NCBI GenBank assembly: GCA_027593235.1
Contig: JAQCIU010000049.1
Coordinates: forward strand, 1-18,203
Origin: Chloroflexota bacterium
Lineage (GTDB): Bacteria > Chloroflexota > Dehalococcoidia > UBA2979
DNA: 18,203 nt
Reading direction: 5' to 3'
In this document: piece after piece, positions 626-821 of the stretch
Position numbering within the stretch: the first letter of the stretch is position 1
Layout: every line of letters begins with the position of its first letter
The notes under the pieces: model-generated
Seen by the model: the letters and a program-made list of their open reading frames with translations, nothing else
Database searches by the model: none
What the model was told of the DNA's origin: nothing
Translations under genes and position numbers: made by a program

Positions 626-655
626 TTGACGAGGCACCCCCGAGATCGCTAAAGT
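626..655 (+). promoter_or_regulatory. Sigma70-type promoter TTGACG-N18-TAAAGT
   Basis: -35 TTGACG at 626-631, -10 TAAAGT at 650-655; predicts a TSS near 662, just ahead of the SD at 664-677. Confidence 0.7.
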
Positions 656-681
656 GGATCTCAAGAAAGGGGGTGATGCGA

Positions 682-753
682 ATGGCTCATGCTAATAGTC
701 TTCGTTTGAACATGGAGGGTCGGAGCGTCTCAACGGAGGTTGTCTCCACCTAA
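682..753 (+). CDS. 23-aa micro-ORF MAHANSLRLNMEGRSVSTEVVST
   Basis: ATG 682, TAA 751-753, preceded by AGAAAGGGGGTGAT (664-677) at normal SD spacing. Too short for the ORF track. Confidence 0.5.
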   Translation: MAHANSLRLNMEGRSVSTEVVST

Positions 754-784
754 AAGACCCCCTGTTCATAACGGGGACTCTTAC

Positions 785-821
785 GGGCCCGTTCGGCGAA
801 TGCCGACGGGCCCTTTTCTTT
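785..821 (+). terminator. Rho-independent terminator
   Basis: GGGCCCG-T-TCGGC-gaat-GCCGA-CGGGCCC (12-bp stem, one bulge) followed by TTTTCTTT at 814-821. Confidence 0.85.

Follow-up and report, generated by a model that had tools for sequence, protein, structure and literature searches.

The window analysed here is an 18,203-nucleotide stretch that makes up an entire contig (JAQCIU010000049.1) of a metagenome-assembled genome from a Chloroflexota bacterium of the Dehalococcoidia (assembly GCA_027593235.1; 3.39 Mb, completeness 89.7%). Near its left end, on the forward strand at positions 626–821, lies a small transcription unit, here called the element: a sigma-70-like promoter, an exceptionally long Shine-Dalgarno (SD) sequence (SD1), a 23-codon open reading frame (ORF) and an intrinsic terminator, with birA, the gene for biotin-protein ligase, downstream. 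An initial annotation made from the letters of this stretch had described the unit as a stand-alone transcript of about 160 nt that might bind ribosomes or encode a micropeptide, and all of its coordinates for 626–821 were confirmed base for base. Several features go beyond that description: C-rich tracts that can pair with the element's own SD (cis anti-SD tracts), a second SD-like site within the ORF (SD2), a long-range helix (P1) and the recurrent birA neighbour.

The promoter is the sole sigma-70-like site that was scanned out of the 18.2-kb window; the chance expectation is 0.7 ± 0.8 such sites, so the scan by itself proves nothing. Its −35 hexamer is unchanged across seven aligned relatives, and TTGAC(G/A) is found at the same location in distant families, while the −10 hexamer varies (TAGAGT, TATTGT and TACTGT in the aligned relatives; TAGTGT, TACCGT and TATACT in distant families). 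The terminator, whose stem is bulged, is absent from the output of the same scan and was delineated by minimum free energy (MFE) folding and covariation: 12 of 12 stem pairs covary among 30 relatives, and the hairpin has a mean energy of −27.2 kcal/mol (n = 96, the set of unique elements defined below). In most of the 96 it begins 20–26 nt after the stop codon, and in some lineages its U-tract is weak (at most 3 U per 8 nt in 30/96). The RNA spanning 662–821 folds with an MFE of −73.6 kcal/mol (z = −5.3 against 200 shuffles). What the initial annotation had proposed, a stand-alone unit with a near-consensus promoter and a terminator around an over-long SD, is supported, and 626–821 is confirmed as an autonomous unit, far beyond chance.

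This unit matches no named family, as had been suspected. Rfam 15, run over the whole window at gathering scores, gave no match; relaxing the threshold to E values up to 10 gave weak matches only, the best of which scored 17.7 bits where 191 would be needed (E 0.16), and Rfam searches with seven divergent members returned no match to the element. The comparison with Rfam that had been proposed as a check therefore turned up no known family, 6S RNA included, and Pfam and NCBIfam were likewise negative.

Within the host's family the element is strongly conserved. Searches with blastn recovered it from 6 of 60 other genomes, and a covariance model found it in 73 of 99 family genomes, covering 17 of 21 genera and mostly present as one copy per genome; the lack of conservation that the initial annotation had listed as counting against its proposal was not what we found. 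The model has false negatives: genus g11 scored 0/4, yet a pattern search found the element in both of the two genomes tried, in each case between an aminotransferase gene and birA. In three genomes of genera g10 and g16 the pattern search found nothing. A degenerate pattern scanned over 185,579 species genomes returned at least 119 stretches; among the matches listed, the model confirmed 51 of 80 loci, and record titles were mostly Dehalococcoidia, Tepidiformaceae or Chloroflexi. Covariance-model and pattern hits were pooled and duplicates dropped to give 96 unique elements. A pooled alignment (A6) included six antisense terminator hits.

We compared SD1, which begins 8 nt past the end of the −10 hexamer, with the 3′ tail of 16S rRNA. 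No 16S gene was found in the host assembly, and the 16S genes of relatives were used for this reason. Their 3′ end reads GGATCACCTCCTTTCT in 5/5 relatives, one of them of the same genus, and against this tail SD1 forms 14 contiguous pairs with a single G:U. The 14-position match claimed at the outset is thus upheld against a same-genus 16S, and does not shrink to the 6–7 nt that had been named as the outcome to fear. Sites with at least 14 pairs (G:U allowed) number three in all on both strands of the assembly, SD1 included. One of the other two, which ranks second in the genome, is a 15-nt complement, GGAAAGGAGGTGATT, at G000:C76:6059 (L091:501); it was set aside as a chance match inside a 286-codon ORF, where it spans the codons D-G-K-E-V-I. 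Among the 96 unique elements, 14 contiguous SD1:16S pairs are found in 87 and at least 11 in every one; the duplex has a mean energy of −22.7 kcal/mol, versus −8.7 kcal/mol for GGAGG alone. The spacing from the SD1 core to the start codon is 8 nt in 72/96.

The reading frame behind SD1 is kept as well. A start codon follows GGTGATG(C/T) by 2–5 nt in 96/96 (ATG in 60, GTG in 36), and the ORF runs for 18–24 codons in all of them, ending in TAA (42), TAG (40) or TGA (14). The two remaining frames are not maintained: in +1 the first stop falls anywhere from codon 0 to beyond codon 99, and in +2 a stop occurs within 6 codons. Selection therefore acts on the start codon, the stop codon and the frame. 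The encoded amino acids behave differently. In 58 nearest-neighbour comparisons we counted 70 synonymous versus 197 non-synonymous codon differences, distributed 105:143:105 over the three codon positions with no third-position excess; by this measure the ORF changes in a neutral or RNA-constrained manner, with no purifying selection on amino acids.

Only M1, D3 and V20 are near-invariant among 50 aligned peptides, and the codons beneath the more constant positions revealed a number of clues: firstly, the x-E/G-V codons invariably read NNG-GRG-GUG and so spell GGRGGUG, with E/G swaps retaining the purine and the codon before ending in G; secondly, the G-I codons read GCAUC, the partner of a GAUGC that lies between the SD and the start codon; thirdly, the D/S-H codons (GAUCAC, AGUCAC) are complementary to GGUGAU of the SD. 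Judged from these codons, the seemingly conserved residues are the imprint of RNA helices.

The GGRGG within the ORF is the second SD-like site. It is present in 96/96, always in the same codon phase; its 3′ edge stands 11 nt ahead of the stop codon in 93 elements and 8 nt ahead in the other 3. Among the unique model-derived family members, whose selection did not involve the pattern, the motif is present in 71/71, and the corresponding figures are 68 and 3. A distance of 11 nt to the stop equals 8 nt to the last sense codon, which is the spacing between SD1 and the start codon, so that a ribosome with the stop codon in its A site would meet SD2 in initiation geometry. We infer that a terminating ribosome would see SD2 much as an initiation complex sees its SD.

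Long-range structure ties these parts together. The GAUGC helix (helices 3 and 4) is 97.8–100% paired in the alignment of 30 relatives, and compensation to GAUGU:ACAUC has occurred in two separate lineages (L033/L039 and L247). In the helix between SD1 and the post-stop C-run (helix 2), pairing amounts to 97.9% and compensatory changes occur. Across members the SD-pairing C-rich tract lies just past the ORF or at its end, and its sequence follows that of the SD: where the SD is of GGGGG type, a CCCC(C) tract is present in 33/34, and where it is of GGAGG type (n = 62) the tract is CCUCC in 24, CUCC or CCUC in 10, UUCC or UCCC in 13 and CCCC in 2. Crossed combinations of SD and anti-SD do not occur, and one genus holds a clean double change (L027). 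P1, which joins the 5′ half of the ORF to the stretch between stop codon and terminator, comprises 23 pairs, 85.7% paired in seven close sequences and with double changes at three pairs; an alignment-free duplex test over the 96 gave a mean of −23.7 kcal/mol and a mean z of −2.85, with 97% of values below −1. In the window the C-run has two possible partners, SD1 at 669–673 or, inside P1, the GG.GGG at 714–719, and hence two exclusive states. The initial annotation had reasoned that a conserved SD, AUG and structure around a variable peptide would support a function at the RNA level; this is the combination that we find, and it points to such a function. The positions of all features are collected in Table 1.

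Table 1. Features of the element and its flanks in the window, with the evidence or remark attached to each.
Feature	Position	Strand	Evidence or remark
ORF, start cut off by contig start	3–587	+	No Pfam or NCBIfam family
−35 hexamer TTGACG	626–631	+	Sigma-70-like promoter scan
−10 hexamer TAAAGT, 18-nt spacer	650–655	+	Sigma-70-like promoter scan
Extended SD (SD1) AGAAAGGGGGTGAT, 14-nt complement of 16S 3′ tail with one G:U	664–677	+	Pairing with relatives' 16S
GAUGC, 5′ strand of long-range helix with 725–729 (GCGUC; GCAUC in relatives)	675–679	+	Covariation
23-codon ORF MAHANSLRLNMEGRSVSTEVVST; ATG 682–684, TAA 751–753	682–753	+	Frame kept, peptide not
P1 5′ arm, inside ORF, codons 6–14	697–721	+	MFE, duplex test
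Internal SD-like GGAGG (SD2)	735–739	+	Ends 11 nt ahead of stop codon
P1 3′ arm, stop codon to terminator	756–779	+	MFE, duplex test
Post-stop C-run CCCCC, cis anti-SD	758–762	+	RNAalifold helix, covariation
Intrinsic terminator: stem 785–797/802–813, loop GAAU, U-tract TTTTCTTT 814–821	785–821	+	MFE fold, covariation
birA, group I biotin-protein ligase, 263 aa	885–1676	+	TIGR00121, 128.6 bits vs cut-off 83.1

The element extends beyond the family. A class-wide even sample gave a raw tally of 34/151, which overstates the number of true members, since of the 24 new loci examined 14 were terminator-only or spurious matches without SD and ORF; the other 10 were true members (families f16, f7, f2, f3, f53 and f11). 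Of 13 loci examined from a phylum-wide sample, 5 were true members (families f74, f76 and f88) and 8 lacked SD and ORF. One genus of family f88, g161, carries a 14-codon version with a consensus TTGACA-17-TATACT promoter (L249:1501-2202, L246 and L248); the 3′ end of a convergent 23S rRNA gene lies about 360 nt away, and all three contigs end there. The host genome itself contains a weak second model match (G000:C16:107939-108050; 24.1 bits, E 0.0014). It has no SD motif, and we took it for a terminator-like hairpin.

We propose that the element is an autonomous gene for a structured, translated, self-masking RNA of about 160 nt, in which the RNA and the act of translation would do the work and the peptide would be a by-product; in our judgement this proposal stands about evenly balanced between right and wrong. 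We infer its cellular role as follows. Free of ribosomes, the RNA would be closed on itself: P1 would have formed, and the SD and the start codon would be hidden. Access for a 30S subunit would come solely through the SD:anti-SD duplex, which at 14 nt is unusually strong and could for that reason open the RNA. The translating ribosome would then melt P1 and, on arriving at the stop codon, would be held again through SD2; its footprint would cover the post-stop anti-SD, so that SD1 stayed accessible to a following ribosome. With the availability of ribosomes the RNA would in this way be switched between two forms, one closed and inert, the other open and loaded with ribosomes, and its lifetime would be tied to translation: a ribosome at the 5′ end would block RNase J, and the closed P1 would perhaps be a substrate of RNase III. 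In lineages with no room for a birA promoter, the switch would set the amount of read-through transcript that reaches birA.

A number of points weigh against this proposal. It was derived from sequence comparison and folding, and the transcript start, predicted near 661–664, was placed by promoter geometry. The collection of sequences is not neutral with respect to SD2: the seven seed sequences of the family covariance model all bear the internal GGRGG motif, and the pattern scan demanded an internal GGRGGTG, which biases the 51 pattern loci, so that model and scan both favour copies resembling that of the window. The members moreover share a phylogeny, and the counts therefore overstate the number of independent events. 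In the distant members L249, L242, L238, L239, L264, L226 and L263, SD2 either stands 7, 8 or 10 nt from the stop codon or is missing, and a structural module, not the geometry of the ribosome, could underlie the spacing. No C/U tract is recognisable from −12 to +22 nt around the stop in 13 of the 62 elements with a GGAGG-type SD. Finally, the proposal does not account for the near-universal birA neighbour.

That neighbour is the starting point of a rival account, in which the element is a cis-regulatory leader of birA, its micro-ORF and hairpin acting as an attenuator, or as some other gate that depends on translation, and determining how much transcription or translation gets through to birA. 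A birA gene lies downstream on the same strand of 89/96 unique elements, within the order class-III aminotransferase, element, birA, hisZ in the host's family, and it stays there even where BirA is only 33–38% identical to that of the window. Tepidiformaceae-type copies and L247 have the birA start about 0–30 nt past the U-tract and birA is often without an SD; as there is no room for a promoter, read-through probably supplies birA in these lineages. A short translated ORF ahead of a terminator is also the classical attenuator layout, and here the ORF, presumably translated, stands directly upstream of the terminator in 96/96. What an attenuator would further need was not found. No antiterminator was found: the 5′ arm of the terminator is not more complementary than expected to the SD and start region (mean z −0.32) or the post-stop region (z 0.2), compared with −2.85 for P1; the terminator is retained in every footprint-constrained fold along the ORF (14 sequences), truncated folds gave no support for an antiterminator, and there is no pairing between the 5′ region and the region around the birA start (z 0.07, n = 85). 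The ORF is not enriched in any amino acid and repeats no class of regulatory codon, and the downstream gene encodes a biotin-protein ligase. In families f88, f74, f7 and f53, moreover, the unit occurs without birA and adjoins unrelated genes, and the birA genes there carry no second copy. Within the host's family the gap between element and birA often equips birA for itself, with an SD of its own in 25/40 and a leaderless-type −10 in 8/40. Taken together, these results speak against regulation of birA through structure, and we hold a birA leader to be unlikely.

The remaining alternatives concern what the RNA or its peptide might bind or do in trans. The initial annotation had suggested either an RNA that captures ribosomal particles or a very abundant peptide. 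A docking RNA, with two sites for the anti-SD at an identical 8-nt spacing, masked by copies of the 16S tail, might measure free ribosomes or hold an initiating and a terminating ribosome at once; we put this forward tentatively and consider it an outside possibility. A fully trans-acting version, in which a frame that fits two ribosomes would titrate, park or report free 30S or 70S particles, appears distinctly improbable. SD1 and SD2 are the most conserved features, each 8 nt before a P-site codon, the peptide is without constraint, every lineage read has a near-consensus promoter and the unit stands alone in some of them, all of which accord with ribosome binding. On the other hand, such a role has no precedent and the abundance of the RNA is presumed, a translatable ORF releases ribosomes instead of storing them, and self-masking helices suggest regulated access, not constitutive capture. 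A functional micropeptide of 19–24 residues (M-x-D-D-S-S-H ... I-S-x-E-V-x-x-T/G) would explain why ORF, start and stop are kept throughout and why M1, D3 and V20 hardly vary. We regard it as very unlikely: the substitution counts give no sign of purifying selection on the amino-acid sequence, which leaves the abundant-peptide suggestion unsupported; the invariant residues fall on RNA helices, with E/G swaps that keep the purine of GGRGG; and the middles of the peptides of distant members are unrelated. Pfam gave no match among 40 peptides scanned, NCBIfam none for 2, and 10 exact peptide sequences were absent from a collection of 15 billion proteins, although 4 of the 10 have GTG starts and were perhaps queried with V first. 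Least credible of all is a small RNA that sequesters CsrA through several GGA motifs. The host does encode CsrA (67 bits; G000:C32:44032-44181, L270), and GGA occurs in SD1, in SD2 and, in the host's genus, in the middle of the ORF; yet CsrA was found in only 41/99 family genomes, with none found in genus g6 (CsrA 0/19, element 17/19) and genus g15 (CsrA 0/5, element 5/5), and these distributions rule out a CsrA sponge as the general function.

The surroundings of the element in the window are unusual in composition. The leftmost 830 bases have a G+C content of 54–63%, versus 69–77% over the rest of the contig, and an insertion or a rearrangement at the edge of the contig may account for the low-G+C segment. 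The truncated ORF at its start occupies the position held in most relatives by the class-III aminotransferase gene. Two observations concern birA. At 8 of 40 family f1 loci with a clear MPFD start, a TAnnnT ends 5–9 nt before the birA start, the geometry of a leaderless mRNA (L050, L054, L056, L058 and L062 are examples). At L258:1240-1435 (G253, family f74) birA is found not behind the element but 15 nt behind another tiny unit, which has a TTGACT-17-TACACT promoter, the SD GGGAGGTGGAG and a 28-codon, very basic ORF without an NCBIfam match; a place behind a small gene with strong signals may be one that birA takes up repeatedly.

Parts of the proposed self-masking RNA have counterparts in known systems. 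The hok-type type I toxin mRNAs are compact and structured, with a small ORF whose SD is masked by long-range pairing. The element is like them in placing a small ORF in a folded mRNA and in masking its SD, including by pairing of the 5′ and 3′ ends, and unlike them in its peptide, which is hydrophilic, variable and unconstrained. In cryIIIA, a strong SD near the 5′ end (STAB-SD) reportedly acts as an RNA stabiliser. Here, too, a strong SD lies near the predicted 5′ end, and the host encodes RNase J (570 bits vs cut-off 400).

Two further systems, hbs and icaR, provide solved examples of particular steps in the proposed mechanism, and a third, trpL/rnTrpL, is a looser analogue. The hbs mRNA of Bacillus subtilis combines a strong SD with a 14-bp pairing between its 5′ and 3′ untranslated regions (UTRs) (PMC5737220). 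The element has in common with it an unusually strong SD close to the 5′ end; a ribosome that initiates there protects hbs from RNase J (PMC5737220) and would protect the element likewise. Whereas hbs and the STAB-SD transcripts are long protein-coding mRNAs, the protected body here would be a terminator-ended small RNA. In the icaR mRNA of Staphylococcus aureus, a UCCCCUG in the 3′ UTR pairs with the mRNA's own SD (PMC3868564). The element likewise has a C-rich motif after its stop codon, (A/G)CCCCCUG, which is complementary to its own SD, is kept by compensatory change and would block initiation, and the SD/C-tract duplex is, as in icaR, a potential RNase III substrate (PMC3868564). The icaR mRNA codes for an ordinary protein and its 3′ UTR is long; the element is an RNA of about 160 nt with 18–24 unconstrained codons, a 14-nt SD and SD2. 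With trpL/rnTrpL of Sinorhizobium it shares a short leader ORF, an intrinsic terminator and a downstream enzyme gene, and an attenuator-derived leader RNA can, once liberated, act on its own (PMC6614838). Unlike the trpL attenuators, the element has no regulatory codons and no antiterminator, its downstream gene is birA, and the unit also occurs alone. We found neither this combination of parts nor an SD-like site fixed 11 nt before a stop codon described in the full-text literature, a body of text that leaves subscription journals and supplements uncovered.

If the self-masking RNA proposed here is real, it would belong to a widespread RNA family that has not been described, in a phylum that has received little study, and it would join in one molecule three traits known only singly: a super-strong 5′ SD, an SD masked by the 3′ UTR, and a leader-type ORF whose peptide has no function. 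At about 160 nt it would offer a natural system in which to study SD:anti-SD strength versus structure, the effect of an SD-like site on a terminating ribosome, and ribosome sensing. It also carries a caution for the annotation of small ORFs, in that micropeptides that look conserved can be the imprint of RNA helices. Should the docking account hold, Chloroflexota would possess an RNA that directly senses or buffers translational capacity, read-through into birA being one of its outputs.
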